Origin: a virus
DNA length: 64,000 nt
Direction: 5' to 3' (one strand)
IMG/VR virus record: IMGVR_UViG_3300023174_000068
Location: 1 to 64,000 of that record
Part shown: positions 2,318-64,000 of the stretch, one piece after another
How positions within the stretch are numbered: position 1 is the stretch's first letter
Layout: each line of letters starts with the position of its first letter
The notes under the pieces: model-generated
Database searches by the model: none
Told to the model about the DNA's origin: nothing
The model's input: the letters and a program-made list of their open reading frames with translations, nothing else
Translations under genes and position numbers: made by a program

Positions 2318-2344
2318 TTATATAACCAAATAAGATTTAGTTTA
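2318..2344 (-). promoter_or_regulatory. Putative bipartite phage promoter TAAAC-N15-TATATAA
   Basis: Same motif and spacing recur at 4375-4401, 9770-9796, 35878-35904 and 49637-49663. Confidence 0.55.
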
Positions 2345-3511
2345 TTGATCTAAAAATTGATCATTTTCTAAGGTCAGATAAGTCGGATTTAAATTTAACC
2401 TAATTTGTGATTTTAAGAAATCACCATCTCGTTGTTTTAGAAGTTTAAATCTATAAATATTTTGACGCTTCATTTCCTCGGTTCTAATGATAGCAAAAAA
2501 TGTATCAGCAGTTTCAGCTATCGCCTTACTCTCAGGAACCGATTCAAGTGTGATATCGGATGAGTTCCAAGCATCTTTTGCCACTTGAACTCCTGTAATC
2601 ACAGGACACTTATATTTTGCACCTAATGCTCTTAAACCCTCGGCTAACGACTTACCCTTTGAATAAAGATTGTCACCGCCTAATCCCTTTGGAGCAGCAA
2701 CTAATGTGATATAATCGACAATTATTAAATCTATTTTGATATCTTTTTTGTCCCTTAACTTTTGCAGGTAGTAGTCAAAATCTGATACTGTGGCTGTTCC
2801 GGCTGCCCAAAATTTACTAAAAATCTTTCCAACTTTTTTATCAAAAATATCACCACCTTCTTTTATACTACCCAGGCCTCTAATTCTTTTGGTGATCATA
2901 TCGGTGTCTTTAGAAACAGCGTCATAATCATTAATGGGAATCTTTAGGCGCATAGCACCTAGTCTTTTCATAACTTTTCTTTCAGACATTTCTAAGGTTA
3001 TATAAAGCACATTATATCCGGCGTCGGCTGATTTGAAGGCGAAATTTTGCATCCAAAGTGAATTATGACTTAAAATATCATTGGTGTAATACTGTTTATT
3101 TGAACCACTGGAAAGTTGAATATCATACATGTGCGACTTTTGACCAGTTAATCCAATACCCATAACCATTTCTGGGCCGTCTTTTGTCATAATAAAATCA
3201 CCGCAACTTAAATCTTTAGTGCACAACTCAGTCAGGTCACACTTTTTATCGAGGAAATTTAAATTATCACATCTATATACCAAGTGCTCATCGGCACAAA
3301 TCAACTCTTTACCACCAGATGTTTGAATTACCCACTCGTCATATTCTACTGTTTTTCCAATACCCTCAATATCAACCCAACCATTTGGTGTCAGCACTTG
3401 CAAATCCTTAACCTCATAAGCCTCGATGAATTTGTCATAAAGGGGTCTATCATATTTGCCACTCAGAAGACTATCTGCTTCAATTATTTCAAAATTATCT
3501 AAATTATTCAT
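2342..3511 (-). CDS. gp41/DnaB-like replicative helicase, C-terminal half, preceded by a 150-aa C-intein
   Basis: Intein blocks ICADEH and MYDI...YYTNDILSHN followed by S+1; then helicase motifs LYITLEMS, LIIVDYI, VITGVQ, LLKQRDG. Confidence 0.93.
   Translation of the reverse strand: MNNLDNFEIIEADSLLSGKYDRPLYDKFIEAYEVKDLQVLTPNGWVDIEGIGKTVEYDEWVIQTSGGKELICADEHLVYRCDNLNFLDKKCDLTELCTKDLSCGDFIMTKDGPEMVMGIGLTGQKSHMYDIQLSSGSNKQYYTNDILSHNSLWMQNFAFKSADAGYNVLYITLEMSERKVMKRLGAMRLKIPINDYDAVSKDTDMITKRIRGLGSIKEGGDIFDKKVGKIFSKFWAAGTATVSDFDYYLQKLRDKKDIKIDLIIVDYITLVAAPKGLGGDNLYSKGKSLAEGLRALGAKYKCPVITGVQVAKDAWNSSDITLESVPESKAIAETADTFFAIIRTEEMKRQNIYRFKLLKQRDGDFLKSQIRLNLNPTYLTLENDQFLDQ
3062..3511 (-). mobile_element. 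Atypically split intein, C-fragment (150 aa), in DnaB/gp41
   Basis: Block B (CADEH), block F (MYDIQL) and block G (SHN/S) present; no block A. Confidence 0.9.
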
Positions 3512-3599
3512 TAATGAATTTTATACATTTTTCTATAGTTTGTTTTGAGTTTTTAGATAAATGTGTCAATTTTATGGGTTGAGGATAGGCGACAAGCAA
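3504..3599 (-). pseudogene. Probable C-terminal relic of a deleted free-standing endonuclease between the DnaB halves
   Basis: Start-less frame reading ...HLSKNSKQTIEKCIKFINE*, whose end overlaps the ATG of the C-intein gene (ATGAATAA). Confidence 0.45.
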
Positions 3600-3619
3600 T
3601 TCAAGCTATTATGCATTAA

Positions 3620-4351
3620 TTATCGCTTAGTCATTGTAATCCCCTTACTAATTTCGGAGAATAGTGTTCCGAAATCACGAATTGACATTTTGTCATTTTT
3701 CTTATTTTTTAAGACAATTTTACTGACAAAATGACAACATTTGCCGTTGTTAGTCTCTGCCATGATACAATTTAAGGTTTGTATATCCCAACCACCACCA
3801 AGCATATGGTCTAAAGTTTCGAATCCAGATTTTATCTTAAACTTTGATGAGTCCTGAACATGATTTTCTGGATCATCAAAATCAGAACCCATGTCATCAT
3901 CTTGCACAAAATTAGTTGATGACATTTCATCTACTATTGACTTAATTCTATCGGCGGCTTCTACAGCCTTATCAAAATCAGATATTTGGTCTAAGTTTCT
4001 AGTTTCATCAATAATATCAACGGTTCCGGTTTTAAGCCGGTTAGAAAGCACCCAGGCATTGAATTTTGGTTCAATAAAGTTTTTCTCATCGTATTCAGAA
4101 AGTTTGACTTGCAGAATTGATTTAAGTATTTCTTTTGTAATTTGACCCTCTTTGTCTTCTAAAGACACCATATCTAAAATTTGTCTAGCCGTTGGTATCT
4201 TACTGTCGCTTTGAGCTAAAATATAATTTCTTAATACACCATAGACAAACTGAATTTGAGAGTTTCTAAAAAAGTGAGGCTTTACAATATCAAAGTATTT
4301 CTTATACTGTAAAACGTAATTAAAAAAAACTTTTTCAAGCTGAGGTGTCAT
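3620..4351 (-). CDS. gp41/DnaB-like replicative helicase, N-terminal half, ending in a 39-aa N-intein
   Basis: KSGFETLDHMLGGG...LNCIMAETNNGK (Walker A up to GK), then CCHFVSKIVL (intein block A) and a stop. Confidence 0.93.
   Translation of the reverse strand: MTPQLEKVFFNYVLQYKKYFDIVKPHFFRNSQIQFVYGVLRNYILAQSDSKIPTARQILDMVSLEDKEGQITKEILKSILQVKLSEYDEKNFIEPKFNAWVLSNRLKTGTVDIIDETRNLDQISDFDKAVEAADRIKSIVDEMSSTNFVQDDDMGSDFDDPENHVQDSSKFKIKSGFETLDHMLGGGWDIQTLNCIMAETNNGKCCHFVSKIVLKNKKNDKMSIRDFGTLFSEISKGITMTKR
3623..3739 (-). mobile_element. Atypically split intein, N-fragment (39 aa), in DnaB/gp41
   Basis: Cys1 directly follows Walker A GK; splicing to S+1 restores AETNNGKS. Confidence 0.88.
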
Positions 4352-4374
4352 TATTTTATATTTCTATGTCTTTA

Positions 4375-4401
4375 TTATATAAAAAAATGAAAACTGGTTT
4401 A
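4375..4401 (-). promoter_or_regulatory. Putative bipartite promoter TAAAC-N15-TATATAA for the helicase
   Basis: Exact motif and spacing upstream of the ATG at 4351. Confidence 0.55.
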
Positions 4402-4405
4402 GTCT

Positions 4406-5218: not shown

Positions 5219-5236
5219 AGAGGTATATATTATTTT

Positions 5237-6817: not shown

Positions 6818-8089
6818 TTACGCCTCAATCTTAACATTTACTTTTTTAATAGCTTCTTGAATCCAATCTGGTAAAAATTGAGAAGAGTGTTTAATAACAT
6901 CTCCAAATCCACCATCAATAATAATAGTATCAGCATAATCCATTTCAGAACGAACCGGTCTTCCAGTCATTTGTATCAGACCAGAAACGGTTTTCCAACT
7001 ATACCAATCCGGGTTATTTTTTTGTCTTAATTTATTTTTTTGAGATGCAAGACTGGGATAAGGAATTTTAGCAATAATTTGAAAACGAGCCGAATCGTTG
7101 TCAAAACTGACACCAGTATCCATAGACGGGCTTACAATTACGGTGGGTTCTTCTGATTCCATATGTAATCTTAACATTTCATCTTTATTAGATGAGTCAT
7201 GAAATATCAGTCTTGGATTTTTAATAGACGACTGAATCCAATTAGCTAATTCAAAGGAATTGGTGTGAATAATACCCTTTTGCTCTTTATACTTGTCAAG
7301 TAGTTTATTTATGTAAGGAATATATTTTCTAAAAGTTTCTTCTTTAGACTTAAATGACATTTTACCAATCGGCATATAGTAGATTGGTCTATTTTTTTTA
7401 GCAAAAGGTGAAGGTATTGAATAATATACGGCTTTTGATACATCAAGTCCATTTAATTGACAGAATAAATTTTTATCCAGTATTGTTCCCGACATCAAAA
7501 AAACCATATCATAGTGTGAAAAAACATATTTATCTAAATAGTCGTAAGCCCAGATTGGCTCAAGTGATAATTCTTTTTGTTTTGTTTTTTCATTCCAATT
7601 TGATTCTAAGACCCAATTATTAGGATTTTCTTTATACTCCTTTAAGAAAACTTCAATTTTAAGTTGATATTGCTTTAAGTCGGTGATTAAATTCATTATC
7701 TTAACATCTGGATTTCCAGTTTTTAAGACTTTAGACAATTTTAGATCTCTTTTGTCTGACTTTGATGACCTTATCACTCCTGACATACCTCTTTCCATAT
7801 CGGTCATAGTTTCGCTAATTTCTAAGTTGATATACTTAAGAAACTCTACATAGTCTAAAATGGAAGCGGTTGATTTTAGTTTTTTAATTATCTCACGCTC
7901 ATTTGAGAATTTAAACTTTTTGATGACCGTTTCGGTAATTTTAATTGTGATAAAATCAGACATAACATCATCGAAATCATGACAATTGCTAACACAGTGA
8001 TTGTTGGCAAAATAATTATGATTATCCTTTATGTGTAGATTATAAACATCTTCTGTGTAGTCTATTTTACTAATTTTTTTTATTTTCAT
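6818..8089 (-). CDS. DinG/Rad3-like SF2 helicase, C-terminal half, preceded by a 35-aa C-intein
   Basis: MKIKKISKIDYTEDVYNLHIKDNHNYFANNHCVSN|CH; then LMSGTI, SPSMDTGVSF, IIAKIPYP, IQMTGRPVRS. Confidence 0.92.
   Translation of the reverse strand: MKIKKISKIDYTEDVYNLHIKDNHNYFANNHCVSNCHDFDDVMSDFITIKITETVIKKFKFSNEREIIKKLKSTASILDYVEFLKYINLEISETMTDMERGMSGVIRSSKSDKRDLKLSKVLKTGNPDVKIMNLITDLKQYQLKIEVFLKEYKENPNNWVLESNWNEKTKQKELSLEPIWAYDYLDKYVFSHYDMVFLMSGTILDKNLFCQLNGLDVSKAVYYSIPSPFAKKNRPIYYMPIGKMSFKSKEETFRKYIPYINKLLDKYKEQKGIIHTNSFELANWIQSSIKNPRLIFHDSSNKDEMLRLHMESEEPTVIVSPSMDTGVSFDNDSARFQIIAKIPYPSLASQKNKLRQKNNPDWYSWKTVSGLIQMTGRPVRSEMDYADTIIIDGGFGDVIKHSSQFLPDWIQEAIKKVNVKIEA
7985..8089 (-). mobile_element. 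Canonically split intein, C-fragment (35 aa), in DinG-like helicase
   Basis: Basic MKIKKI start, VYNL (block F), HNYFAN..VSN/C (block G). Confidence 0.92.
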
Positions 8090-8972
8090 TTCTAAATTGT
8101 CTCAAATTTTTAATAACCTTCTTCTCACATGGCTGCCCCTTTAATAATTCAGGATTGTAATTTTTTTTAAACCACTTATCTGTAATTAATATAAATTTAT
8201 AACCATTTAGTTTACACCATTTTTTAGCATAATAGATTTTACTTTTTACTTTATCGTTATCCTTGTTAGATAGAGGCTTTATTTCATATAATATCCGATC
8301 TTTGAGGTCTACAAAATCGACAATATAATTAAACTCATCTCCAAGATATTGATAAGGTATTATTAGTTTCTCATATAATAAATTAGTGTTGAATAATTGA
8401 AAATAGGCTTCCCAACTAGATCTAGTTTTGATTTTGACAACTTCGTCCCCCCTTTGTAATTGAACCTCACATTTTGAGTTTGCCCAACTATTTGTAACGT
8501 TTGGGATAAATCTACCTTCTCTAATGTTTTTTTTCATTTTTTTGGAGTTTTTATCACACATTGATTTAAAACTTTCCTCTGTCATTCTATGACAAGTGTT
8601 ATTTTTTCCCATTTGTCTTTTTGATATAGATTTATAATTACAGTCTGGATTTTCACAGAATTTATAAATTCCATATTTTTGATTAACGTTTATATAATCT
8701 TGTCTATTGGGAAACAGTGAAGTCAATTTTCTATTACTATAACAGTTTTCATTTTTACACTTCTTATCCCAGTGTTCTGTTAAATAATTGAAGCAATGTT
8801 GATGGCTTTCAAAAATCAAATTTTTTTGAAATTTACTTATCAAAAAATTTAAAGTCGATATGGCGTCAGATTCTTTTTTTTTATAGATAAATTTTTCTTT
8901 GCAAGATGATAGAAAATCGTAAATCTCATCCTTCTGCATGACTGTCAAATTCATGTGATTCGATTTTTTCAT
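8070..8972 (-). CDS. Free-standing putative homing endonuclease (PD-(D/E)xK, TnsA-like C-terminal domain, Cys-rich N-terminus)
   Basis: RSSWE...YEKLIIPY...YIVDF...LYEIKP motifs; overlaps both split-intein gene halves. Confidence 0.8.
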   Translation of the reverse strand: MKKSNHMNLTVMQKDEIYDFLSSCKEKFIYKKKESDAISTLNFLISKFQKNLIFESHQHCFNYLTEHWDKKCKNENCYSNRKLTSLFPNRQDYINVNQKYGIYKFCENPDCNYKSISKRQMGKNNTCHRMTEESFKSMCDKNSKKMKKNIREGRFIPNVTNSWANSKCEVQLQRGDEVVKIKTRSSWEAYFQLFNTNLLYEKLIIPYQYLGDEFNYIVDFVDLKDRILYEIKPLSNKDNDKVKSKIYYAKKWCKLNGYKFILITDKWFKKNYNPELLKGQPCEKKVIKNLRQFRNENKKN

Positions 8973-9762
8973 TTATATATAAAATCTCATCATCTTCATT
9001 CAGATCCTCTACTTTTTTCCAACTACCATCAGATATTTTGACTTTGTGATTACCTGTTATTCTCAAAATGTCTCCATTATTCATTTCGATTTCATACATC
9101 TGGGCCCCTTTATTCAAATTATGATGCAACTTAACGACGGGTTTATTTTCTATTTCACCAGACTGCTCATTAATAGTTTTCACTAAATCACCAACTTGTA
9201 TGTCTTTAATTTTTTTAGTAGAATTATCCCAAAGAGTTATCTCAGTTTCTGGGTGTAGACACTCGTCCACAATTAACACTCGAGAACCTCTATTTTCTAT
9301 TAATTTTGGATTATAAATTGCATAGAGTATGTAAAGATAGAAATTTGTCAAAGAAATTCCACCAGAAATAAAACTTTCCCTTGCATAAGCATACGGACAA
9401 CTTTCACAAGTAGTTTTATTTAGCCTATTAAATTCAGCACCCTGTGCACAGGAGCAGGAATAGGCATCACACTCATAATTTTCTTTTCCTTTTAGGTCGC
9501 AAATCGATTGATAAGTATCAGAATATTGATTTTGAAGAATTTTAGAGTTGGTGATGATATCTATTTTAGATGACTTATCAACAGTTCTTCTAAACCAATC
9601 AGCAATCATTAAGGCCAAATGGCTTTTACCTGATCCAACAGGCATATTTAGTAGAAAAAACTTATTTAATTTATTTTTCTGGTATTCAGAATCAATAAAA
9701 CTAAGTGCCTCTTTTTGTTCTTTTCTTGGCTTATAAAGACCAAGGTCTTTTTTTAATGACAT
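8926..9762 (-). CDS. DinG/Rad3-like SF2 helicase, N-terminal half, ending in a 111-aa N-intein
   Basis: Q motif PRKEQ, Walker A MPVGSGKS, LKGKENYEC...CESCPY (Fe-S-like Cys), VLIVDE then CLHPETEI. Confidence 0.92.
   Translation of the reverse strand: MSLKKDLGLYKPRKEQKEALSFIDSEYQKNKLNKFFLLNMPVGSGKSHLALMIADWFRRTVDKSSKIDIITNSKILQNQYSDTYQSICDLKGKENYECDAYSCSCAQGAEFNRLNKTTCESCPYAYARESFISGGISLTNFYLYILYAIYNPKLIENRGSRVLIVDECLHPETEITLWDNSTKKIKDIQVGDLVKTINEQSGEIENKPVVKLHHNLNKGAQMYEIEMNNGDILRITGNHKVKISDGSWKKVEDLNEDDEILYINEKIESHEFDSHAEG
8929..9261 (-). mobile_element. Canonically split intein, N-fragment (111 aa), in DinG-like helicase
   Basis: Block A CLHPETEI, IKDIQVGD, block B ITGNH, WKKVEDL and an acidic tail. 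Confidence 0.92.
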
Positions 9763-14402: not shown

Positions 14403-16043
14403 TTATTTTGTAAATTTTTTAAATGAAAACATTTCACTCACCGAATCTTGACTTTTGTAATACTCCATTATTTTTTTAAGTGAGGTATTGAAGTCTTTCA
14501 TATCGGCTCCAAATTCTCCAAGTGCTGAATACATGTTTTCACCTTCGAATTGTAGAGTTCTTTTTGCCAGTCGAGCCATTTTTTCAGCCACTACCTTTCT
14601 CTTATTTTTATCAGATATGATGTCAATACTTTCTTTATATAAAGGACCAAAATCAGGCAGTGTTTTAGAGTATTTACCATAAAGGTGTTCGTAGATATCA
14701 TTATATAGTGATTTGATAACATCCTTAGAAGGACTATCTAATTTTTTCTGAAGTATATCATCTATAAACTGTTCTGTTACTCCAATTCCTTTATCTTTTT
14801 GGTCAACTATATTATTCATAGATTTTTGGATATTCTTGTAAGCTTGAACAAGATAGTCTTCAGCAGCAGTAATTGTTACCTTTCTTGGTTGTTTTGAAAA
14901 TTCTTTTTCAAAAATTGCAAAACTTTTAATGGACTCCCCAACTACAGACATATTTTTTGCTGTAACTTTATTAGACTTTGATTTAATACCCTGTGATTTA
15001 GATAATTCGTCATTTTCTAATCCAACGCCACCAAAAGAAATAATCATACTTTTAAGAGATTGTAGATTTTTAATCATTTCTGGATAAATAGACTTCAATG
15101 ATTGAGAATCAACTTTTGGTTTTTCGTCAATAACCTCTTCAAAATCATTAGAAATTTCTTCAATGTCATCAGATGATATGTATTCTTCTTTAGATTTATT
15201 GGAAAAATAGTTACCCAGATACGCCAGACAATCCTCAACCGTTGGATAAGGCTTACATATCCAAATAGCCAATATAATTAAGCCGGCCATAAGTAACATA
15301 CCACCAATTGCTGCCATCAAAATTGGACTCATCCCGGCCAACACACCAGCTAATGAAATACCGGCTAATTTTAGGATGCCCATAATGATTAAACCAATGG
15401 TTCCTTTTTTTACAATCTGTGAAACCACTCCGTTAAATCTAGCATTTTTGATTCCTAATGCATAAGCCAGTTTTTCAAACATGCCATAATGGTGTATTTC
15501 ATCATCACCTATGTCGTTAGCAGATTCTGAAATCCTAACATTATTCCCCACTTGTTGAAGTTTATCTTCACTAAATCCTTCTTTAGACCAATCCACTAAA
15601 TTTTTTGCACTCCTACAAAGGTATGCCCAGATATTTTTGAAATTAGGTCGGTTATTTTCATCACAAAGTCCATTTCTTACAATAAAATCGCTAAATCCAC
15701 TTAGGAGGTCTTTTACCTTTTGAAACATGCCAGATCCTATTTCTTTGATTTTTTGAGAAACGGCTGAAATTAACTTTTTAATTGAAAAGTTTTTGAAGAA
15801 ATTAACAACTCCATTAAATACTCTTGAAATAACATCTCCGACACCCCTAATAACTGATTTTACAGCGGCTTTTCCTTTTTGGTATTTGTCCTTTAACCAC
15901 TTACCAATAAGCTCTTCGGTAATTAATCCCTCGATAGGTTTGATTATATCTTCAACAGAAATATTTTCCTCAGATAAGAATCTACTTTCTATTAATTTAG
16001 ACTCATATAATTTAGAGTAGTTGGAATAATTTTTAACTTTCAT
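14403..16043 (-). CDS. Membrane protein with tag motifs and a domain shared with 54386-57097
   Basis: Likely start MKVKNYSNYSKLYE (ATG 16043); two TM helices; PLYKESIDIISDKNK...VAEK domain. Confidence 0.8.
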   Translation of the reverse strand: MKVKNYSNYSKLYESKLIESRFLSEENISVEDIIKPIEGLITEELIGKWLKDKYQKGKAAVKSVIRGVGDVISRVFNGVVNFFKNFSIKKLISAVSQKIKEIGSGMFQKVKDLLSGFSDFIVRNGLCDENNRPNFKNIWAYLCRSAKNLVDWSKEGFSEDKLQQVGNNVRISESANDIGDDEIHHYGMFEKLAYALGIKNARFNGVVSQIVKKGTIGLIIMGILKLAGISLAGVLAGMSPILMAAIGGMLLMAGLIILAIWICKPYPTVEDCLAYLGNYFSNKSKEEYISSDDIEEISNDFEEVIDEKPKVDSQSLKSIYPEMIKNLQSLKSMIISFGGVGLENDELSKSQGIKSKSNKVTAKNMSVVGESIKSFAIFEKEFSKQPRKVTITAAEDYLVQAYKNIQKSMNNIVDQKDKGIGVTEQFIDDILQKKLDSPSKDVIKSLYNDIYEHLYGKYSKTLPDFGPLYKESIDIISDKNKRKVVAEKMARLAKRTLQFEGENMYSALGEFGADMKDFNTSLKKIMEYYKSQDSVSEMFSFKKFTK

Positions 16044-16097
16044 AAAATAAATTGTATTTTTATACAATCTATATATTAACTCCTAATTCTTTTTTTA

Positions 16098-17624
16098 TTA
16101 AATTTCGGATTCTAATTTTTTTATCTGATCCTGAACTTCTTTCAACTCTTCTTTTTTTTGCATCATAATTTTTTTATTCTTTTTTCTATCAGCATAAACA
16201 TCTTCAAGCATTCTTAGAGTTGGGGATTTTCTTTTTTCAAATACAACACCGTTCACACAAAGCACATGTTTTTCACTATCGATAGGTCTACCATTTGTGC
16301 ATTTAGTTTTATCTTTTTCATCTTGGAGACCAACAAAAGTCTCAGGAGCAATAAAAAACTGTCTTTGCGTTGTAGGATAAAGTGATGCAAAGTCATAAGT
16401 AACAACCCACTGGTTCATACCAACAACAGGGTCTTTAACCCACCCACCGGCAATTGTTGATTCAGCATCACCCTTTTCATCACGGAAAAGAACAATATTA
16501 TCCATTTTTCTAAACTTATTTCTTAAAACTCCTTCTGTGATGGCTAAAGAACCAAGTGCGTTGTTCATTTGAGAAACAACATCAACTATTCGAATTTTAG
16601 CCAGCGAAGAAATCGCATAGATTATGGAAATATAATTTCTAGACTCGTGGATTTTTTGAACCAACACCGAGTCAACTGCGTTATAATACATAAACGTCTC
16701 GAAATCATCTTCATATAGTTTTTGAAGCGAACCAGTATATTTAATTTTTTCAACTCCCACTAATTTATGTGACACGAAATCCAATGACGATGATTCTTTA
16801 ACTTTAATTGATGTGTCGCAAATTTCATAAAGTTGCATGTAATCGAATATCATTCTATGCGCAGGAACCTCACATTCGTTACCCCACATTTTAGTAATTC
16901 TTTTAGTAAATGAAGAAACGGCCGGATTTATAGTATATTCTCTACCATTGACCCATTTAGATATTTTTCTGGCCCTATTAACAAGGTAGACCCAGTCATA
17001 ATTTATAAAGTTCCAACCAGTTAGAAGCGGCATTTTTGGAACCATTTTGTAAAAAAAGGCATGCAACATCTCGAACTCATCTTCATATTTTACATACTTG
17101 AATTTATATTCTGTTCCAAACTTTTCAAAATATTTGTTAGTGTTGGTGATAATTCTATTTTGCATATCATCAGGCATATCTTTTAGACCAAGCAAAATAA
17201 TTTTATCTTCATAAACTATGGATATTGACAATACTTGAGTAATAGCCCCCTCTTTAACCACATTTCCCGCTGCGTCTTTAACGTCAGCCGCTTCAGGAAA
17301 TCCATCTATAATCTCAGTTTCAATATCAATAAAATAAATTTTTGGCAAGTTGAATTCAAAAATTTCAGATGTTTCTTCTTCTGGTAGCGAATCTAAAAAT
17401 TCATAGACAGCATATCTATCAGGCTGTGAGACTTCTATCTGCTTTACCGATTTTCCATCCCAGGATCTAAATTGGGGGTGTTTTTGTGGATCAGTATCCT
17501 CGCATGAGACGTACTTCATAGGATTGTCCCAATTGAAATACTTTAACTTAATATCCCCGCTTTTGTCAACAAAACTGACTACTAACTTTTTACTATTTGG
17601 TAAATATTGCGTCTCAACTAGCAC
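16098..17624 (-). CDS. Family B DNA polymerase, N-terminal subunit (exonuclease plus palm motif A only)
   Basis: FIDIET (ExoI), GWNFINYDW (ExoII), YNAVD (ExoIII), GGWV, YDFASLYP; ends after the first fingers helix with no KxxxNSxYG or YGDTDS. Confidence 0.9.
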   Translation of the reverse strand: MLVETQYLPNSKKLVVSFVDKSGDIKLKYFNWDNPMKYVSCEDTDPQKHPQFRSWDGKSVKQIEVSQPDRYAVYEFLDSLPEEETSEIFEFNLPKIYFIDIETEIIDGFPEAADVKDAAGNVVKEGAITQVLSISIVYEDKIILLGLKDMPDDMQNRIITNTNKYFEKFGTEYKFKYVKYEDEFEMLHAFFYKMVPKMPLLTGWNFINYDWVYLVNRARKISKWVNGREYTINPAVSSFTKRITKMWGNECEVPAHRMIFDYMQLYEICDTSIKVKESSSLDFVSHKLVGVEKIKYTGSLQKLYEDDFETFMYYNAVDSVLVQKIHESRNYISIIYAISSLAKIRIVDVVSQMNNALGSLAITEGVLRNKFRKMDNIVLFRDEKGDAESTIAGGWVKDPVVGMNQWVVTYDFASLYPTTQRQFFIAPETFVGLQDEKDKTKCTNGRPIDSEKHVLCVNGVVFEKRKSPTLRMLEDVYADRKKNKKIMMQKKEELKEVQDQIKKLESEI

Positions 17625-53840: not shown

Positions 53841-54389
53841 CTAAACTTTCTTTTTTAGTTCAGTTAATTCATCTTTGGCCTTTTTCATGAGTTCATCATG
53901 TTCCTTTAAAACTTGTTTTATTTGTTTTTCTTTTTCAGCAAGTGTTACAGTAATAGTAGATTGGTCATCAGAGTTCTGTTTCAATTGCGTTTCAATATTT
54001 TTTAATGAAACTGGTTCGTTCTTATTAAGCTCTTTTCTATCCAACAATTCAGATTTTTTGTTCTTTTTATCTTCTCGCGTTTTAATTAATTCTTTAATTT
54101 CATTTTCTAATCGGCAAATTTTCATCCAATCAACTGCAAATTTATTCCTACCTTCTTTTTCAGGCATCAATTTTTCTATTTCTTGTGAAATTTCTGCATC
54201 GTTTTTTGTTGAACTATAAAGCTGTTCAATTTTAGATTTGAGTGAATTGTAGTCTGATAATTGTTTTTCTAAATCCTTTAGTTCGTCTCTACTCTCTTCC
54301 TTTTCAATCTTTTGGTCAGTCGTTTCTGGTTCTAACTCTTCGTTCAATTGCAGTTGTTTAATAAAATGTTTGAACTTTTTAATTATCAT
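53841..54389 (-). CDS. Coiled-coil protein with capsid-targeting-like tag
   Basis: MIIKKFKHFIKQLQLNE followed by an E/K-rich coil. Confidence 0.75.
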   Translation of the reverse strand: MIIKKFKHFIKQLQLNEELEPETTDQKIEKEESRDELKDLEKQLSDYNSLKSKIEQLYSSTKNDAEISQEIEKLMPEKEGRNKFAVDWMKICRLENEIKELIKTREDKKNKKSELLDRKELNKNEPVSLKNIETQLKQNSDDQSTITVTLAEKEKQIKQVLKEHDELMKKAKDELTELKKKV

Positions 54390-58066: not shown

Positions 58067-58099
58067 TACTCTAGAAATTTAATTAATATATATTAAATT

Positions 58100-58339: not shown

Positions 58340-59184
58340 ATGCTCTTTTTTTTGATATTGATTCTATAATAAAAGTAGAAAGCAAGGTTTGGGTTGTTTC
58401 AAAAAAATATCCCAATAGACCTTTAATCAAACTTAGCGAATCTGAATTTAATTTGATACAAACTGGAATTTTCAAAACCAAAGGTGTAGAGCTTAACATA
58501 TCAGGCAAGAATCAATGGATTAGCGAAGAGACTTATAATCTAATAAAATCAGCTTGTAAAAAAAACTCGGTTGATATAACTGCACTTGCTTTTTCAATGA
58601 AAGAATTTAATGACCCAGAAATAATTGATAGTTTAGAATATCATATCTTCAAAGAGCACCTAATCGATTGTAAAAATTACACCGGTCATATTTATCTACT
58701 TTGTTCAAAAAATACACTTAGAAACTACGAAAAAATTATACAAAAGGTGAAAAGTTACTTAGAATCAATTGGTGTAGAGTTATTTGGACACTATGCCTTA
58801 TCGGAAACTTTTTTCAATAGAGATGAAGATAAAATAGTGCAATCTAAGAACAAACTTTTGATACAACACTTAGTTGGATACAAAACCGATGATGATAAAT
58901 TTACAGACAATCAAATTCAGCAGTATAAAAACATCACCTATTATGACAGCGACTCCAAATCAATTGATTTTTCAAAAAGTATAAATAATCTACTAAAAAT
59001 TCTTTATGATAATTCAACTGATTCGATTAAAGATGAAATTAAGACCAAAGTTGATAACTCAGAAATAAAATTACTTTCAAACTTTGTAACCTACAATTTA
59101 AGTAACCCCTTTGTAAAGTTTGAGACAAAAATTAGCCTATATAATTTAGTAAAATCTTTTGAGAGTTTTAAGTGGAGAGACTAA
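58336..59184 (+). CDS. HAD-like hypothetical protein
   Basis: FFDIDS at the N-terminus, YYDSD late; C-terminal LVKSFESF tag-like motif. Confidence 0.65.
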   Translation: MNALFFDIDSIIKVESKVWVVSKKYPNRPLIKLSESEFNLIQTGIFKTKGVELNISGKNQWISEETYNLIKSACKKNSVDITALAFSMKEFNDPEIIDSLEYHIFKEHLIDCKNYTGHIYLLCSKNTLRNYEKIIQKVKSYLESIGVELFGHYALSETFFNRDEDKIVQSKNKLLIQHLVGYKTDDDKFTDNQIQQYKNITYYDSDSKSIDFSKSINNLLKILYDNSTDSIKDEIKTKVDNSEIKLLSNFVTYNLSNPFVKFETKISLYNLVKSFESFKWRD

Positions 59185-59807
59185 CCCCGTTTATCACTGT
59201 CTTTATTTAACATAGCCTTTTTTATCAACTCATTTAGATCCCTGTTACTTGTTATCACACCATCTTTAACCGACTGACCATCAACATCATCTGTTTTTAT
59301 ATCAGGATTTTCAATTTCGTTATATCCCATATCCTTTCTTAGCGTTTTATAAAACTTTTCCAAATCAGTTCTTTGACCCGAAAGGAATTTAGCATTTTCT
59401 CGTATTTGACCAATAGTTTGATTGACTACCTCGTGCATTCTAGCTGAATTATCACCGTTGTCTATTTGCCTAAGCTGTGATAAGAAGTTTTTTCTAGTCA
59501 TTTTAGTTAAAAATATTGCCTCGGCATAAACCATAGCATCTTCTTTCATTTTGTTTTTAATGTAGGGATGGTCTTTCAATTGTGGTATATCGCTTAGATA
59601 AAGATCTACTAACGACTCTAAAACACCCATTGATTGTTGAGAAGAAGTAGTTAAGTCAGAATCGTAGTCATAGATTTCGATTTCTCCTAAATTAGGAAGG
59701 TCTTCCGGTTTTGCAAGGTGTTTTGAAATATCAAAGTCGGTCCCCTCAGACTGAATCTGTTCGAATTCATCTTGTAATCTATTTCTTTCATTTTCGGACT
59801 TTGACAT
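59181..59807 (-). CDS. Helical hypothetical protein divergent from terL (terminase small subunit candidate)
   Basis: 208 aa; shares the TATATA at ~59826 with terL-N; function inferred from position only. Confidence 0.55.
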   Translation of the reverse strand: MSKSENERNRLQDEFEQIQSEGTDFDISKHLAKPEDLPNLGEIEIYDYDSDLTTSSQQSMGVLESLVDLYLSDIPQLKDHPYIKNKMKEDAMVYAEAIFLTKMTRKNFLSQLRQIDNGDNSARMHEVVNQTIGQIRENAKFLSGQRTDLEKFYKTLRKDMGYNEIENPDIKTDDVDGQSVKDGVITSNRDLNELIKKAMLNKDSDKRG

Positions 59808-59848
59808 AAAGGCGGTTTTTTACAATATATATTAAAAATAAAGTCTCC

Positions 59849-60376
59849 GTGATGGCAAAACAAGGTGAAGAATTAGAAAGGCAAATGATATTTACCACCA
59901 ATGTCGTAAATGAATCGACAGATAAGATTAATGATGGTATTGTCATTAAAAGATATCAAAATCCATGGCTAAAAAGTGAAGTGGGTGTAAGAAGAGCGGG
60001 TGTGGCATTTAAGATGACACAAGATGAACAACAGGAGTATATAAATTGCGCTTTGGATATACACTACTTTGTAGAAAAATACTGCAAAGTGAAAAGAGAA
60101 GATGGTTCAATTGGTAACATAAGTCTCAGGGATTATCAAAATGAAATACTTGATAATTTGGTAAATAGTCGATTTAATATAATAATGGCGAGTCGGCAAG
60201 TTGGAAAATGCTTTTCTTTTAACACAATAATATCGATTGAAAAAAATGATATCCAATATGATGTTAGAATAGGAAAGCTCTATTATTCAATGATTTCCAA
60301 AGAAAGAAAGCTTACAATTTTAGAAAAAATTAAGATTAAGTTATATGACTATCTATACAGATTAGAAAATCTCTAA
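59849..60376 (+). CDS. terL: Terminase large subunit (gp17-like), N-terminal half, ending in a 55-aa N-intein
   Basis: CALDIHYFVEKY..LRDYQ..IIMASRQVGK then CFSFNTII (intein block A). Confidence 0.92.
   Translation: MMAKQGEELERQMIFTTNVVNESTDKINDGIVIKRYQNPWLKSEVGVRRAGVAFKMTQDEQQEYINCALDIHYFVEKYCKVKREDGSIGNISLRDYQNEILDNLVNSRFNIIMASRQVGKCFSFNTIISIEKNDIQYDVRIGKLYYSMISKERKLTILEKIKIKLYDYLYRLENL
60209..60373 (+). mobile_element. Atypically split intein, N-fragment (55 aa), in TerL
   Basis: Cys1 after Walker A GK; ~30-aa core (..VRIGKLY) plus a helical extension. Confidence 0.88.
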
Positions 60377-60447
60377 ACAATACTTATTACTATCGGTGAT
60401 AATATTGCGAATAAACAAACGGGTATCTGAATTGAGATGTAATAAGT

Positions 60448-62172
60448 TTATTGAACTATAAATTCCCATTTAATTTTACCACAATCCCATATTTTTTTAA
60501 TATTTAACTTATTTTCACTTATACCGGTTTTTGATTTTCTAAATCTTGATTTATGAACTCTAATACCCTCAAAAATATATTTATAGTCTGGAACACTTGA
60601 ACTAACTTTTTTGAATCCTAATTTTTTATATAGATTGCCTTCGGACCAGTCACGGTCTGCATAACTAATAACCCGATCGACATTATAATTATTTAAAAAA
60701 TATTTAAATAATTTACTTGCCCCTCCTATAATATTATGGTCTATTCTATTGCAAAATCTATTTATGTTCCAACCGCTTATCTTTTTTCTCCCCTCGTAAT
60801 GATCGAAAGTCATTAAACTCACAAGTTCATCATTATAATAAAGACCTAATTTCAAACACGAAGCAGCCTTTCCTTGTATGTGGTTTTCTTCTAAGAATTT
60901 AGTAACTGCTACTGTATCTCCAATTTCTCTAACGCAGCATTTTCTGGCAAGTATTCTTTTATCAGTTAATCCTATCCAATTTTTTATTTGTGATTTTATT
61001 ATTTTGTTTTTAAACACCCAATCGTCTTCCCAGATATGTATAATCCTGATTCCTCTTTCACTAAAATATTTAGTTTTATCTAAATGGTAACTCTTATCTC
61101 TGTACTTATCTGAATGCCAATATAAACCATTGAATTCAAATCCTAAATTCAAATGGGGTAAATAAATATCTATTTCCAAACCATCCCTGTATGATTGTAT
61201 AATTTCCCCCTTATAGATTGATTTTATATACTCATAAAGTCCATTTTCCTTAATTGATTGAGAATCGCTTATTGGATTACAAACAGTACAAAGTGGTAGA
61301 TTAATTTCCTTTCTTTTCAAATAATTATCAGATGATATTTCGAATTGATGGCCTTTTTCACATTTGTATAATGATGTTTTATTTTTTAAATAAGTTATGA
61401 AATTCTCAGAAAATATTTTTTTACCAAATTTACTCAAGTTTGATTTATTATAATTATCAACTCCCCACTTTTTTATATTATCTAAACTTACCCTTTCTTT
61501 ACATTCTTCAGTTTTAGAATAGCTATCTACTCCCCATTTATATATTGATGTTTGTTTAATTTTATCTTTGAATTCTTCAGTTTTAGAATAATTATCAACT
61601 CCCCACTTATATAATGAGACTTCTTTAATCTTTTCTTTAATAACATCAGATTTTGACGGATTATCTACTCCCCATTTACTTAAACTTTTTTCTTTAAACT
61701 TGGTTTTAAATTCTCCGGTTTTTGAATAATGATCGACTCCCCACTTTTCTAATGTAGTTTGTTTAATTTTTTCCTTAAACTCATCAGTTTTGGAATAGTG
61801 CTCAACTCCCCACTTTTCTAAAATTTTATTTTCTAATATCTTTTTAACCTTTTTAGACTTCATTGGATTATCAACTCCCCACTTTTCAATATTAGTTTCT
61901 TTTCTTTTTAAATTAATACAATCTATTGAATTACAACAGTGTTTTTGTCCATCATTTTCTATCTTTAAATATTTTCTCCATTCAGTATCATACACACTTT
62001 TACAGAAATCACATATAGGTTTTACTTTATATCCTGATCCATTTGGTAGCATATTAACAGGTATTTTTAATTCTTGATTCGATTTGACACTCAATTTATC
62101 ACCGAATTGGTTTATTATTTTCTTTTGATTGTAGTTATTTACATATATAGTTGCGTATTCAGAAGATAGCAT
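60448..62172 (-). CDS. Free-standing putative homing endonuclease (Hef-like PD-(D/E)xK) with seven 23-aa KWGV repeats
   Basis: CDFC and C..GH..CTVC zinc motifs; EIDIYLP..GFEFNGLYWHS; IHIWEDDW; C-terminal ARKC..NHIQG..GGASKL..SYAD..IWDCG. Confidence 0.85.
   Translation of the reverse strand: MLSSEYATIYVNNYNQKKIINQFGDKLSVKSNQELKIPVNMLPNGSGYKVKPICDFCKSVYDTEWRKYLKIENDGQKHCCNSIDCINLKRKETNIEKWGVDNPMKSKKVKKILENKILEKWGVEHYSKTDEFKEKIKQTTLEKWGVDHYSKTGEFKTKFKEKSLSKWGVDNPSKSDVIKEKIKEVSLYKWGVDNYSKTEEFKDKIKQTSIYKWGVDSYSKTEECKERVSLDNIKKWGVDNYNKSNLSKFGKKIFSENFITYLKNKTSLYKCEKGHQFEISSDNYLKRKEINLPLCTVCNPISDSQSIKENGLYEYIKSIYKGEIIQSYRDGLEIDIYLPHLNLGFEFNGLYWHSDKYRDKSYHLDKTKYFSERGIRIIHIWEDDWVFKNKIIKSQIKNWIGLTDKRILARKCCVREIGDTVAVTKFLEENHIQGKAASCLKLGLYYNDELVSLMTFDHYEGRKKISGWNINRFCNRIDHNIIGGASKLFKYFLNNYNVDRVISYADRDWSEGNLYKKLGFKKVSSSVPDYKYIFEGIRVHKSRFRKSKTGISENKLNIKKIWDCGKIKWEFIVQ
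61440..61900 (-). repeat. Seven imperfect 69-bp coding repeats
   Basis: ACTCCCCA anchors at 61460, 61529, 61598, 61667, 61736, 61805, 61874; they encode KWGV(D/E)xxxK. Confidence 0.9.
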
Positions 62173-62188
62173 AATCTATATATAAAAT
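62173..62188. promoter_or_regulatory. Putative bidirectional TATATA late promoter
   Basis: 16-bp gap AATCTATATATAAAAT between two divergent start codons. Confidence 0.55.
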
Positions 62189-62626
62189 ATGATTAAATCT
62201 GTTTTAATAAGGATAATAAAGTTTTTAATAACTTTTATTGAAAGAGTAGAACTGAGAAATTCGTCACTAGACGAAAATGACATCAATAAAAAAATACTAA
62301 ATTCTATTAATGTTTTCGGGTTTAAAGTTAGAACTGATGCAGGATATGAAAAATTAACAGATTTGCATATAACCCAACCATATAGGCACTATGTTCTTAA
62401 AACAGATGGTTATGAATTATCATGTGCTGATAATCATATAGTCTTTGATAAGGACTATAATGAAGTATTTGTAAAAGATTTGGTGGTGAATGACATAATA
62501 CAAACAGAGTCAGGATTACAAAGAGTAATATCTTTAAAGCAGGATAACTTTAAATCATCTATGTTTGACGCAACCGTTAATCATCAAAACCACAGATTTT
62601 ACACAAATGGCATACTTTCACACAAT
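62189..62626 (+). mobile_element. Atypically split intein, C-fragment (146 aa), in TerL
   Basis: Block B CADNH, block F MFD, block G SHN/T; splicing restores SRQVGKT. Confidence 0.9.
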
Positions 62627-64000
62627 ACAATCTCATCGGCAATTTTCATGTTACATAAAATACTATTTGATAATGACAAAAACATTATGATAGTTGCAAA
62701 CAAAGGTGACACAGCTGTCGAGATTGTTGATAAAGTAAAATCAATTTATTCACTACTGCCATTTTTTCTAAAACCCGGTGTCAAAACTTGGAATCAAAAA
62801 TCTTTAACTTTTGAAAACGGTTGTCGTATCAAAACTTCAGCTAGAACAAAAACACCAGCGATTGGTTTTACTATTGATGTGCTCTATTTAGATGAGTTTG
62901 CCCATATTCCATCAAATATCATTGAACCATACTACACGGCGGCTTTTCCAACTACAGCGGCGGTTCAGAACTCAAAAATAATTATAACATCAACTCCAAA
63001 TGGAATGAATCTATTTCACAGGCTACTTACAGATGCTGAAAGACCAGAAGGTGATCCGCAAAAAAACAACTATAAACCAATGCGGGTTTATTGGTACCAA
63101 GTTCCTGGAAGATTCGTTACCTACATTAGATTAAATTCACATAAACTATGGGATAACAAGTTAACGAAAGAAGATGTGTTAGAACAATGTAGGGAAAAAT
63201 TTGAAATGCGAACAAAAGTAGAAATGATTTGGAATTCTGATTTACAAAAAGACATCATTTGTGTTTATAATAATGAGCACTGCTCTGATGACGAAGTAAA
63301 ATCAACTATGATAAAGACCGAGAACAGAGAAATTTCAATTAGGTTAATTTCAGAAGTCACTACCTGGAAAGAAGAAGCTATCAAGGATATTGGAGGCGAA
63401 GACGCCTTTAATCAGGAATATGGTCTAAGGTTTATAAACGAATCTAAATCCTTATTAAATGAATCCATTATCGATGAGCTATTGAGGAGTAAGAAAAATT
63501 ATATTTTTGAGGAGATTGCTGAATTTGAGAGGATTAAGTTTGATTATTCAGACTTAAAATGGATAGATGATGAAGAAATTTATTTACCAATAAAAAGAAA
63601 GGATTACAAAATTGTAATATCTGTTGACTTAGCCGAAGGTCTAGGTCAAGATTACTCCGTAATTAACATTTTCAAAGTTGGCGTAAAACCAACGGATTTA
63701 ATAGAACTTCAAAAGGCTAAATACGAATCGATTGTTGATTTTTTTAGATTAGAACAAATTGGAATTTATCGAAGCAATATTATTTCAATAAAACAAGTAG
63801 CAGAACTTCTTTATCTACTAGCCTTCGAATTTTTTAATCCAGAAAATGTCAAAATTGTTTTAGAGTTAAACAACTATGGCAATACGCTGCTTGCAGAAAT
63901 GCCCCACGTCTTTGAAGGAAATAATGATTACGGTTCCTCAATTTTTATGAGATATAAACACAGAATTGATTCAAATGAAGAAAAAGTAGGTCTCAAAGTC
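62189..64000 (+). CDS. terL: Terminase large subunit, C-terminal half, preceded by a 146-aa C-intein (runs off the window)
   Basis: Manual translation: MIKSVLIRIIK..LSCADNH..MFD..RFYTNGILSHN|TISSA..IVANK..FENG..LYLDEFAHI..IITSTPNG..FNQEY..SVDLAEGLGQDYS. Confidence 0.93.
   Translation, partial: MIKSVLIRIIKFLITFIERVELRNSSLDENDINKKILNSINVFGFKVRTDAGYEKLTDLHITQPYRHYVLKTDGYELSCADNHIVFDKDYNEVFVKDLVVNDIIQTESGLQRVISLKQDNFKSSMFDATVNHQNHRFYTNGILSHNTISSAIFMLHKILFDNDKNIMIVANKGDTAVEIVDKVKSIYSLLPFFLKPGVKTWNQKSLTFENGCRIKTSARTKTPAIGFTIDVLYLDEFAHIPSNIIEPYYTAAFPTTAAVQNSKIIITSTPNGMNLFHRLLTDAERPEGDPQKNNYKPMRVYWYQVPGRFVTYIRLNSHKLWDNKLTKEDVLEQCREKFEMRTKVEMIWNSDLQKDIICVYNNEHCSDDEVKSTMIKTENREISIRLISEVTTWKEEAIKDIGGEDAFNQEYGLRFINESKSLLNESIIDELLRSKKNYIFEEIAEFERIKFDYSDLKWIDDEEIYLPIKRKDYKIVISVDLAEGLGQDYSVINIFKVGVKPTDLIELQKAKYESIVDFFRLEQIGIYRSNIISIKQVAELLYLLAFEFFNPENVKIVLELNNYGNTLLAEMPHVFEGNNDYGSSIFMRYKHRIDSNEEKVGLKV

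Follow-up and report, generated by a model that had tools for sequence, protein, structure and literature searches.

Three essential ATPase genes in the window, those for the DnaB/gp41 helicase, the DinG helicase and the terminase TerL, are very probably fractured genes, each encoding two polypeptides that carry the N- and C-fragments (IntN and IntC) of a class-1 intein and would be joined by trans-splicing. The window is the whole stretch of DNA analysed here, 64 kb of a 131-kb contig, which represents about 23% of one genome. The proposed source is a huge phage from fresh water, related to the 630–735-kb uncultured phages LR745206 and LR7565xx. An earlier note on this DNA claimed three split inteins that break catalytic motifs. 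This is borne out, and the lengths and junctions are exactly as claimed: GK/S with 39 + 150 aa in DnaB/gp41, DE/CH with 111 + 35 aa in DinG, and GK/T with 55 + 146 aa in TerL (the slash marks a splice junction). All six open reading frames (ORFs), two per gene, are present at the positions given there. The +1 nucleophiles are likewise Ser (DnaB), Cys (DinG) and Thr (TerL), at the junctions SHN/S, VSN/C and SHN/T.

What is observed directly is how the sequence is organised, that precisely matching intein-free sites exist, that the fragments are homologous to inteins that have been tested, and that these features are conserved and recur in separate samples. Splicing itself and the absence of cross-reaction between the pairs are inferred. 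The IntN and IntC fragments would associate, Cys1 would form a thioester, and this would be attacked by the +1 residue (Ser in DnaB, Cys in DinG, Thr in TerL). The terminal Asn would then cyclise, and the new peptide bond would restore GKS or GKT in the P-loops and DECH in the DExH box.

Anatomy of the three loci

The DnaB/gp41 locus is on the minus strand. Its N piece (3620–4351) consists of a 204-aa N-extein (3740..4351), which ends in the Walker A sequence ..NNGK and shares 75–90% identity with the corresponding exteins in IMG/VR relatives, and the 39-aa IntN (3623..3739), which starts with Cys1 (..NNGK/CCHFVSK..) and is closed by a stop codon at 3620–3622. The IntN of relatives at the same site is 35–38 aa long. 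The C piece (2342–3511) begins with the 150-aa IntC (3062..3511), containing block B CADEH and ending in ..ILSHN/SLWM. It is followed by a 239-aa C-extein (2345..3061) with the +1 Ser of GK/S, which matches Pfam DnaB_C from profile position 38; the alignment of T4 gp41 to the C piece begins at S204. H76, H149 and N150 of IntC are invariant in an alignment of 12 sequences. A profile of 12 IntC sequences matches CatC (2.2e-7) and the gp41-1 intein (4e-4), while the single DnaB sequence alone reaches only 0.002.

Between the two pieces is a 108-nt spacer (3512–3619, minus strand) with five in-frame stops. Inside it, overlapping the IntC start codon, lies a 16-codon ghost of a same-strand homing endonuclease gene (3507..3554), KNSKQTIEKCIKFINE followed by a stop. 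[quoted passage not shown] The reading of this locus as one with a lost endonuclease holds, judged from this remnant.

Among 68 DnaB loci in IMG/VR, 18 have the IntC, 43 are contiguous without an intein, 5 are cut, and 2 have a related IntC in another gene. Complete intein loci number 16; a same-strand endonuclease ORF of 386–481 aa lies between the halves in 12 of them and none is seen in the other 4. A protein database search with the IntC region found 453 proteins at E<=1e-3, and among the 120 matches listed, nearly all are 385–393 aa, the same split architecture. The exact DnaB C-piece protein is found on seven contigs, the longest being 492,847 bp. Contiguous alleles of the intein also exist (P0002, 615 aa; P0108, 612 aa). 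The IntC shows pN of 0.16–0.22 against a saturated pS of 0.71–0.80.

The DinG locus, also on the minus strand, has an N piece (8926–9762) with a 167-aa DinG/Rad3-like helicase N-extein (9262..9762; Pfam ResIII) ending in ..LIVDE. Its 111-aa IntN (8929..9261) starts with CLHPETE.., contains block B TGNH, and matches Pfam Hint (E=7.7e-11) and Intein_splicing positions 1–95. The C piece (6818–8089) starts with the 35-aa IntC (7985..8089; Intein_splicing positions 122–152), which ends in HCVSN with a penultimate Ser, and continues into a 388-aa C-extein (6821..7984) with the +1 Cys (CHDFDD) and a match to Pfam Helicase_C_2 (7.5e-14). A free-standing gene for a 300-aa endonuclease (8070..8972, same strand; phrog_15427 'endonuclease', 3.2e-25) overlaps both intein ORFs. 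Its TnsA-like N-terminal match is weak (6.5e-4, below the cut-off). Homologues with 57–61% identity are at the same place in contigs L171 and L188. DinG carries a canonically split intein, whose two parts flank a predicted live gene for a PD-(D/E)xK-type endonuclease. Among 29 DinG loci in IMG/VR, 3 have the split intein and 26 are contiguous (15 DEAH, 5 DECH and 6 DESH).

The TerL pieces are on the plus strand. The N piece (59849–60376) contains a 120-aa N-extein (59849..60208) ending in ..SRQVGK and the 55-aa IntN (60209..60373; ..QVGK/CFSF..), which consists of the intein start and a helical tail. The tail is conserved in seven aligned loci and LR756501, and Cys1 is invariant. The C piece (62189 onward) starts with the 146-aa IntC (62189..62626), which has a helical head at its N-terminus, contains block B CADNH and ends in ..ILSHN/TISS. 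Its C-extein (62627..64000, continuing to genome position 64402) has the +1 Thr of GK/T and matches Terminase_6N; the T4 gp17 alignment to the C piece begins at T167. In an alignment of nine sequences, 51 IntC columns are invariant, including H83 of CADNH. The IntC matches VidaL (6vgv, E=3.6e-8) and CatC (6dsl, 2.1e-7). Comparison of TerL with L081 gives dN/dS of 0.17 for IntN, 0.36 for IntC and 0.06 for the extein. In IMG/VR, 12 of 80 TerL loci have the IntC, 66 are contiguous without an intein, and 2 are without the N part. In LR756501, the TerL intein ends in LN rather than HN, and a second TerL-like paralogue is present.

A 1758-nt secondary insert (60383..62140, minus strand) with an antisense homing endonuclease gene (ORF 60448–62172, 574 aa; phrog_3339 'homing endonuclease', 2e-106; DUF7487, 8e-29) sits in the 47-nt TerL spacer. 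It is absent from L080, in which the flanking DNA is 99.2% identical, and a decayed remnant is found in L081. Relatives have a same-strand, putatively Vsr-like endonuclease in the spacer at 9 of the 11 loci with both halves. The antisense gene was rejected as a stage of the same element, being a secondary cassette of another family. The three loci had been described as three stages of one life cycle (sense, antisense and lost endonuclease). The loss at DnaB agrees with this, but the antisense endonuclease of TerL is an unrelated insert. The spacer endonuclease genes probably come and go: DnaB has lost its own and kept a ghost, while the TerL lineage probably lost the usual same-strand gene and was later invaded by an unrelated antisense one. 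Against DUF559, the L021 endonuclease alone scores above the cut-off (21.6 vs 20.6 bits); the others match MTES_1575, below the cut-off.

Splicing features, empty sites and a fourth split gene

Cys1 is the first residue of the DnaB, DinG and TerL IntN. The block B His is present in all three and invariant in the DnaB and TerL alignments, as are the termini SHN/S and SHN/T, respectively. The block B Thr of TxxH is replaced by Ala in DnaB and TerL; the motifs CADEH/CADNH and YTNxILSHN, named in the earlier note, were both found. Inteins with a penultimate Ser, as in DinG, or with an LN end, as in LR756501 TerL, are known among active inteins; either feature could lower the activity. Comparison with intein models and known split inteins, which had been suggested, gave significant matches (Hint, VidaL and CatC). 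DnaB and TerL have block B within IntC, and their IntN, at 39 and 55 aa, are longer than the 15–37 aa reported for natural atypical inteins (PMC13014065). These two inteins probably belong to a single atypically split family within which they have diverged, one with a short IntN and block B in IntC, that targets the GK/S or GK/T site of P-loop ATPases. A third P-loop host of this family is a gp46/Rad50-like ATPase in the related contig L078.

In LR745206, the nearest relative, dnaB, dinG and terL are all unbroken and their sequence equals the predicted spliced products. The intein-free sites read ..ETNGGKSLWMQNF, ..SRQVGKTISASIF and ..LIVDEAHDFDD, with DEAHDFDD at the DinG junction and SRQVGKTISAS in the contiguous TerL.

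The count of three is right for the window, but the genome has at least four such genes, since PolB is also split. The PolB N-terminal half with the exonuclease domain and motif A lies in the window (16098..17624, minus strand). The remainder, about 90 kb off and outside the window on the same 131-kb contig, bears the fourth split intein at motif C. This intein has Ser1 in block A and reads ILVHN/S in block G; the gene between its halves encodes a free-standing endonuclease (phrog_22677, with a weak Vsr/DUF559-like match).

Across the 131-kb contig, DnaB, DinG and TerL were each found only once. As the contig is about 23% of the genome, intact second copies may lie elsewhere, so the claimed dependence of replication and packaging on trans-splicing is likely rather than certain.

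Partner choice and alternative readings

The earlier note regarded the two atypical pairs as similar and feared cross-splicing into helicase-terminase chimeras. The likeness is real for the IntC fragments (34% identity over 124 aa, E=2e-17). The IntN fragments have no significant likeness, 193 of 2000 shuffles reaching their score. For this reason such cross-splicing looks less likely than feared. Moreover, the tail and head extensions of TerL are conserved and absent from the DnaB pair. In the model of the TerL complex, the IntN tail (chain residues 42–65) packs against the IntC head (residues 3–21), which predicts an extra helix-helix clamp. The model scored 0.89 (best control, 0.00), with partner pLDDT of at least 84 and contact agreement of at least 76% in replicate runs. 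It was built on custom alignments. The mark it passed was also attained by 58 of 80 complexes of known structure and by 2 of 110 mismatched pairs, and resemblance to already solved split inteins may account for the pass. It might be speculated, tentatively, that this clade carries mutually orthogonal atypically split inteins hopping among the GK/S and GK/T sites of DnaB, TerL and gp46/Rad50. Partners would be chosen by add-ons at the split site and not by the HINT core, the add-ons being the TerL clamp and an apparently duplicated first helix in DnaB.

It is rather unlikely that the DnaB and TerL pairs splice yet are not orthogonal, with cross-association or cross-splicing tolerated or limited by early and late expression. 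The homology of the IntC fragments would fit this. GOS-TerL and AceL-TerL IntN are described as interchangeable (PMC11766414), and the off-target signal reported for a 24 × 24 matrix came mainly from atypically split inteins (PMC7090010). The lack of significant likeness between the IntN fragments, the TerL extensions missing in DnaB, and the purifying selection that keeps both families argue against it.

Much less probable is that no covalent splicing takes place and the enzyme pieces are kept in contact by the intein fragments and TerL helices, acting as mere interaction domains like those of the Aeh1 fragmented NrdA, a ribonucleotide reductase reported to be joined by domains derived from a mobile element (PMC3045599). 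PolB is also broken once without any intein, in both the present contig and LR745206, and the predicted helix-helix interface of TerL would be large and non-catalytic. Yet all of the aligned relatives keep Cys1, the His of block B, the C-terminal Asn and the nucleophile at +1, which indicates catalysis, as nothing else would preserve these residues. Besides, each break interrupts a P-loop or a DExH box, so that an intein of 146–201 aa left uncut would occupy the active site.

The remaining alternative, that the genes are misassembled contiguous inteins or dead genes with intact copies elsewhere, could appeal to the incomplete contig (just about 23%), the contiguous DnaB alleles P0002 and P0108, and the second TerL-like paralogue of LR756501, but is largely refuted and very improbable: the same split forms in hundreds of independent metagenome proteins and contigs exclude assembly error, the DnaB–DinG stretch is present at 1.00 of sampled words in five runs from three studies of 2013–2019 (four of the five being possible sources of the DNA), the DnaB spacer has its five stops, the intein parts are under purifying selection, and the 131 kb hold no second copy. 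The two halves of DnaB, of DinG and of TerL are distinct ORFs of a single genome, each with a start and a stop codon of its own, and the layout recurs in independent contigs. Runs from RNA libraries that contain the DNA do not demonstrate transcription.

Relation to known inteins and meaning

With trans-spliced fractured genes as the preferred reading, the closest precedents are the fractured genes described in 2009 by Dassa, London, Stoddard, Schueler-Furman and Pietrokovski (PMC2677866), whose hosts include the gp41 helicase and terminase. Fractured genes, atypical TerL inteins and insertion in the P-loop are all already published, and the present loci add members. In the 2009 set, the gp41-7 locus is described as free of an endonuclease, one terminase has a long C-part (122 aa) with all N-motifs but N1, and Vsr-like endonucleases are at half of the loci (PMC2677866). 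The inteins gp41-1 to gp41-7 have a canonical split (88–105 + 33–54 aa) and lie at P-SSM2 gp41 position 356, whereas the DnaB intein here is atypical and at the P-loop. The three coding regions of those loci are on one strand, unlike the antisense endonuclease of TerL here; DinG has its endonuclease on the same strand, and DnaB has a same-strand remnant. DinG is outside the eight enzyme types listed in 2009, although the supplementary tables of that paper may hold overlapping sites. At least four such loci on one contig also differ from what that report describes.

The TerL and DnaB pairs are clearly homologous to the inteins AceL-TerL and GOS-TerL and their consensus, Cat (PDB 6dsl), and resemble them in having a fairly short IntN and a long IntC; the TerL pair also shares the terminase host. 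Those fragments are given as 25/104, 37/115 and 30/104 aa with Cys+1 (PMC11766414). Here they are 55/146 aa with Thr+1 at GK/T, with a conserved helix added to each fragment, and 39/150 aa with Ser+1 in a helicase. Among solved structures, VidaL (PDB 6vgv), a natural atypical split intein, matches the TerL IntC best in sequence. It is reported to have a 16-aa IntN, split after strand beta-2 at site S1 (PMC13014065), shorter than the 39 and 55 aa here, which would correspond to a split after the first helix, at site S2. The insertion point, GK/T or GK/S, is that of the 'classic' P-loop inteins between the invariant Lys and Thr/Ser, such as mycobacteriophage TerL1-a (PMC5050341); those are described as contiguous, whereas these are split. 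A contiguous form of the TerL intein is seemingly present in Ackermannviridae (Ag3 TerL, 736 aa, matching query residues 47–306). The PolB locus resembles the split PolB intein of the Pseudomonas jumbo phage MIJ3 in Ser1, ILVHN/S and an endonuclease between the halves (PMC6892783). The MIJ3 endonuclease is reported as HNH, while that of PolB here is phrog_22677, and PolB here is broken again without an intein.

The loci are relevant to protein engineering and to intein evolution. Natural atypically split inteins are valued tools for protein ligation. Four characterised ones are named in one report (PMC13014065), and two further atypical families appear here, with dozens to hundreds of natural variants. 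The predicted TerL clamp could be borrowed for better affinity or specificity; if add-ons do set the choice of partner, this would be a new transferable means of making short-IntN inteins specific. At the same sites, one clade has every state of the cycle: empty, contiguous mini-intein, split with an endonuclease, decayed, lost, and re-invaded by an unrelated endonuclease. The 2009 gene-breaking model can therefore be examined on real alleles. If the reading is true, the birth and healing of split inteins would be recorded directly in alleles that exist side by side (contiguous, split with an endonuclease, ghost and re-fused), and a huge phage would need at least four trans-splicing reactions for its replication, repair and packaging.

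Split genes and their inteins

Three genes are each encoded as two separate pieces, with intein fragments (IntN and IntC; a slash marks the junction with the extein) at the break. The DnaB N piece (3620–4351, −) carries an IntN of 39 aa with the junction ..NNGK/CCHFV.., and its C piece (2342–3511, −) carries an IntC of 150 aa with the junction ..ILSHN/SLWM. For DinG, the N piece (8926–9762, −) contains an IntN of 111 aa (..IVDE/CLHPETE..) and the C piece (6818–8089, −) an IntC of 35 aa (..HCVSN/CHDF). For TerL, they are an IntN of 55 aa (59849–60376, +; ..QVGK/CFSF..) and an IntC of 146 aa (62189 onward, +; ..ILSHN/TISS). ORF lists and translations match exactly the three gene pairs described in an earlier note on this DNA. 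The extein identities proposed there are borne out by Pfam: the matches begin at profile position 38 of DnaB_C and 15 of Terminase_6N, and the DinG pieces match ResIII and Helicase_C_2. Structure alignments with T4 gp41 and gp17 begin at the Ser and Thr, respectively, after the Walker A lysine. In PMC5050341, insertion of an intein after the Walker A Lys and before the Ser/Thr is termed "classic".

The intein identity is supported by comparison with intein HMMs and known inteins. The DinG IntN matches Pfam Hint (7.7e-11), and the DinG IntC corresponds to the end of Intein_splicing. The TerL IntC matches two solved atypical split inteins, VidaL (3.6e-8) and CatC (2.1e-7). A lone DnaB IntC sequence scores only 0.002 against CatC; the profile built from 12 natural DnaB IntC sequences scores 2.2e-7 against it and 4e-4 against the gp41-1 intein. 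The alignments show no variation at Cys1, at the block B His, at the terminal Asn or at the +1 nucleophile. In LR745206, an uncultured huge phage, DnaB, TerL and DinG are each one ORF, and the sites read ..ETNGGKSLWMQNF.., ..SRQVGKTISASIF.. and ..LIVDEAHDFDD... These are exactly the predicted ligation products, except that DinG has Ala in place of the +1 Cys.

Between this phage and its relatives, pS is saturated (0.7–0.8). The non-synonymous divergence of the DnaB IntC is 0.16–0.22, slightly above that of the exteins (0.11–0.15). Compared with L081, a close relative, the dN/dS values are 0.17 for the TerL IntN, 0.36 for the TerL IntC and 0.06 for the extein. The intein fragments are constrained, less so than the host proteins.

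The possibility that the breaks are assembly errors, raised in the earlier note, is excluded because the same split forms recur across loci, proteins and sequencing runs. Among 68 DnaB loci in IMG/VR, 18 contain the split intein and 43 are contiguous without an intein; five are cut, and two have a related IntC in another gene. The TerL survey (80 loci) gave 12 split, 66 contiguous and intein-free, and two without the N part. DinG is split in three of 29 loci; the other 26 are contiguous without an intein (15 DEAH, 5 DECH, 6 DESH). The DnaB IntC region is found in 453 proteins of a large collection at E ≤ 1e-3, and among the 120 listed nearly all are 385–393 aa long, corresponding to the same split architecture. 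Seven contigs, the longest of 492,847 bp, encode the DnaB C protein of this very phage. The DnaB-DinG stretch is present at 1.00 of sampled words in five runs from three studies; four of these runs are marked as ones from which this DNA may derive, and the fifth is an RNA library. Besides, the two DnaB ORFs share one frame and the 108-nt spacer between them contains five in-frame stops, so the DnaB break is not a single-base error.

Endonucleases and allelic states

The earlier note regarded the three loci as stages in the life cycle of one element, with a sense, an antisense and a lost endonuclease. The loss at DnaB is directly supported. In 12 of the 16 complete intein-bearing relatives, a same-strand gene of 386–481 aa lies between an IntN of 35–38 aa and the IntC; the remaining four have none. 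This family matches phrog_22677, and its Vsr/DUF559-type matches are weak. The DnaB spacer here encodes KNSKQTIEKCIKFINE followed by a stop, 14 of whose 16 residues are those of the C-terminus of the relatives' endonuclease. This remnant overlaps the IntC start codon, as the intact gene does in the relatives. At the DinG locus, both intein ORFs overlap with a gene of 300 aa on the same strand, whose matches are phrog_15427 "endonuclease" (3.2e-25) and, at a weak level, a TnsA-like N-terminal domain. Its homologues occupy the same position in two related contigs (L171 and L188), and it is mostly deleted in a third (L175).

The antisense gene at TerL, however, does not fit a single life cycle. 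Nine of 11 relatives having both TerL halves contain a same-strand endonuclease of 322–341 aa. Here, the spacer contains a 1758-nt insert (60383–62140) with an antisense 574-aa gene, which matches phrog_3339 "homing endonuclease" (2e-106) and DUF7487, a family other than those of the same-strand endonucleases. In the related contig L080 the spacer is only 47 nt and the flanking DNA is 99.2% identical, and only fragments of the insert are left in L081. Since one relative is empty, another retains fragments and the gene is of another family, the antisense gene is, judging from these sequences, a later and independent invader of a spacer already free of endonuclease.

A second stretch resembling the DUF7487 repeats lies outside the window at genome positions 86249–86539, and may be another homing endonuclease gene. 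By eye, the ORF at 46539–47270 (−) opens with a GIY-YIG-like motif, which makes it another candidate for a free-standing endonuclease. Next to it is a gene for an Mre11/gp47-like nuclease (45412–46530, −), to which the 131-kb contig yielded no gp46/Rad50 partner.

Unsplit alleles are also seen. The DnaB intein is unsplit, at the identical site, in two database proteins of close relatives: P0002, of 615 aa, and P0108, of 612 aa. In P0002 the sequence ..SEISKGDYN-LLSGKYD.. resembles a split-form IntN tail joined in frame to the IntC body, and this protein may be a re-healed (re-fused) allele. In split DnaB forms the tail of the IntN is similar to the head of the IntC, and the first helix may thus be encoded twice. 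Two apparent additional cases were rejected. The tblastn rows for gp41 of Aeromonas phage 31 (query 23–364) are alignment overreach, the CDS of 468 aa being an ordinary gp41, and the row for LR745206 TerL (from query residue 104) falls in a contiguous ORF.

Relationship of the two atypical pairs

The earlier note considered the DnaB and TerL pairs, both atypical, to be similar enough for cross-splicing to matter. The similarity holds for the IntC fragments, which are homologous (34% identity, E = 2e-17), but not detectably for the IntN fragments. BLASTP gave no alignment between the two IntNs, and 193 of 2000 shuffles reached the score of their local alignment.

The TerL pair has about 25 additional residues on either side of the split, and 7–9 relatives in the alignments conserve them, as does the distant LR756501. 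In a model of the TerL IntN–IntC complex, the IntN tail helix packs on the IntC head helix, besides the expected beta-strand docking. The model scored 0.89 against 0.00 for the best control, with a partner pLDDT of at least 84 and a contact agreement between runs of at least 76%. Of 80 solved complexes, 58 reached the mark that this model passed, as did 2 of 110 mismatched pairs. The model used our own alignments, and its pass may stem from resemblance to inteins already solved. The modeled contact between tail and head argues for specific pairing. By contrast, IntN fragments are described as swappable between related atypical TerL inteins (PMC11766414), and off-target signal as coming mostly from atypical splits (PMC7090010).

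Related inteins are seen in other hosts. In the related contig L078 (2700–5938), a gp46/Rad50-like ATPase is split at Walker A GK/S by a related atypical intein, whose parts are a 33-aa IntN, a Vsr-like endonuclease on the same strand and a 124-aa IntC. Identity of this IntC to the TerL and DnaB IntCs of the window is 46% and 39%, respectively. A contiguous relative of the TerL intein seems to be present in TerL of the Ackermannviridae (Ag3, 736 aa). In the 735-kb phage LR756501 (L009 to L011), the two TerL halves are 12 kb apart with endonuclease-free flanks, and the IntC ends with LN, not HN. This phage also has a second, intein-free TerL-like paralogue of 390 aa with GIT in place of GKT.

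The fractured polymerase and the phage

The record is 131,438 bp long with a CheckV completeness of 23%, and the window, with a GC content of about 31%, is its first half. The tail-sheath protein is closest to those of the uncultured huge phages LR745206 (634 kb, 64.5% identity) and LR756502 (642 kb); the 735-kb LR756501/3 are more distant matches. The DNA of this phage was found again in freshwater and lake metagenomes from several studies (2013–2019). Megablast of 59000–64000 against cultured and deposited phages gave no match. The ribonucleotide reductase alpha gene (3–1223, −) is truncated by the contig start. Two large proteins without a Pfam family (14403–16067, −, and 54386–57097, −) share a conserved C-terminal stretch, ..PLYKESI.IISDKNK..VAEK.AR...R.LQF.G..; they may be paralogues that belong to the virion or serve as cargo. 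Additional inteins are present in related contigs. In one of them (G004), a further intein lies a few kb past the DnaB gene, and a fifth intein just outside this record is possible.

PolB is broken twice. Its N-half (16098–17624, −) is about 90 kb from the remainder (genome 106386 onward, +) on the opposite strand. This break, at the tip of the fingers domain, is intein-free. The N-half ORF of LR745206 stops at the same point and the remainder begins a separate ORF. The split recalls the annotated gp43A/gp43B of Aeromonas phage 31. Outside the window, in the stretch 106386–106560 of the genome (+; 2387–2560 of the genome stretch L005), the PolB middle gene has motif B broken by 43 nt in which a stop codon and a perfect GC hairpin are found. 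Reading picks up again in frame from Leu CUG to CUA, and the resulting QLAL-KLVLNGSYG is exactly the contiguous sequence of LR745206. Similar stop-plus-hairpin inserts are at other codons of motif B in the relatives L189 (matched GTT/GTT) and L190 (matched GCT/GCT), and after NGSY in L191 and L192. The 43-nt insert is confirmed by contigs of three studies. No joined form was found in contigs of four runs. The two RNA-library runs do not demonstrate transcription, and the lack of coverage of L005 positions 2435–2506 in contigs of run X8 carries no weight either way. No other GC-rich perfect hairpin turned up in a scan of the 131-kb contig, so the insert is not a repeated element of this contig. 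Based on these features, it looks like a gene-60-type ribosomal hop. According to its abstract, the Manning and Atkins preprint describes such hops only in topoisomerase genes.

The second PolB break, located by searching the whole contig with Intein_splicing and DNA_pol_B and reading the region, is an intein outside the window. The IntN has the junction ..YADTD/SCHKDSL.., the IntC has ..ILVHN/SLFV, and an endonuclease of 366 aa is encoded between them on the same strand. LR745206 has YGDTDSIFV uninterrupted in one ORF, and thus Ser1 is the first intein residue and the insertion point is the classic one in motif C, as published for the split PolB intein of the jumbo phage MIJ3 (PMC6892783). 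An IMG/VR scan with the PolB C piece is dominated by distant polymerases, with close relatives at four of the 80 kept loci.

Fractured genes have been published, including gp41, terminase, an endonuclease-free locus and an atypically long terminase C-part (PMC2677866), and the natural atypical inteins described are AceL-TerL, GOS-TerL, VidaL and PolB16 (PMC11766414, PMC13014065). In huge gut phages, genes are reported to be commonly broken up by introns, inteins and endonucleases. In the literature searched, we found no DinG host (supplementary tables of PMC2677866, which may list relevant sites, aside), no 39-aa or 55-aa IntN variant with split-site add-ons, no antisense secondary endonuclease, no four fractured genes on one contig, and no full series of allelic states. 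These loci belong to a known kind of arrangement, with some variant features. The observation in the earlier note is confirmed and its interpretation partly supported. The genome has at least four split inteins rather than three. Because PolB is also fractured, replication, repair and packaging of this phage would likely need at least four splicing reactions.
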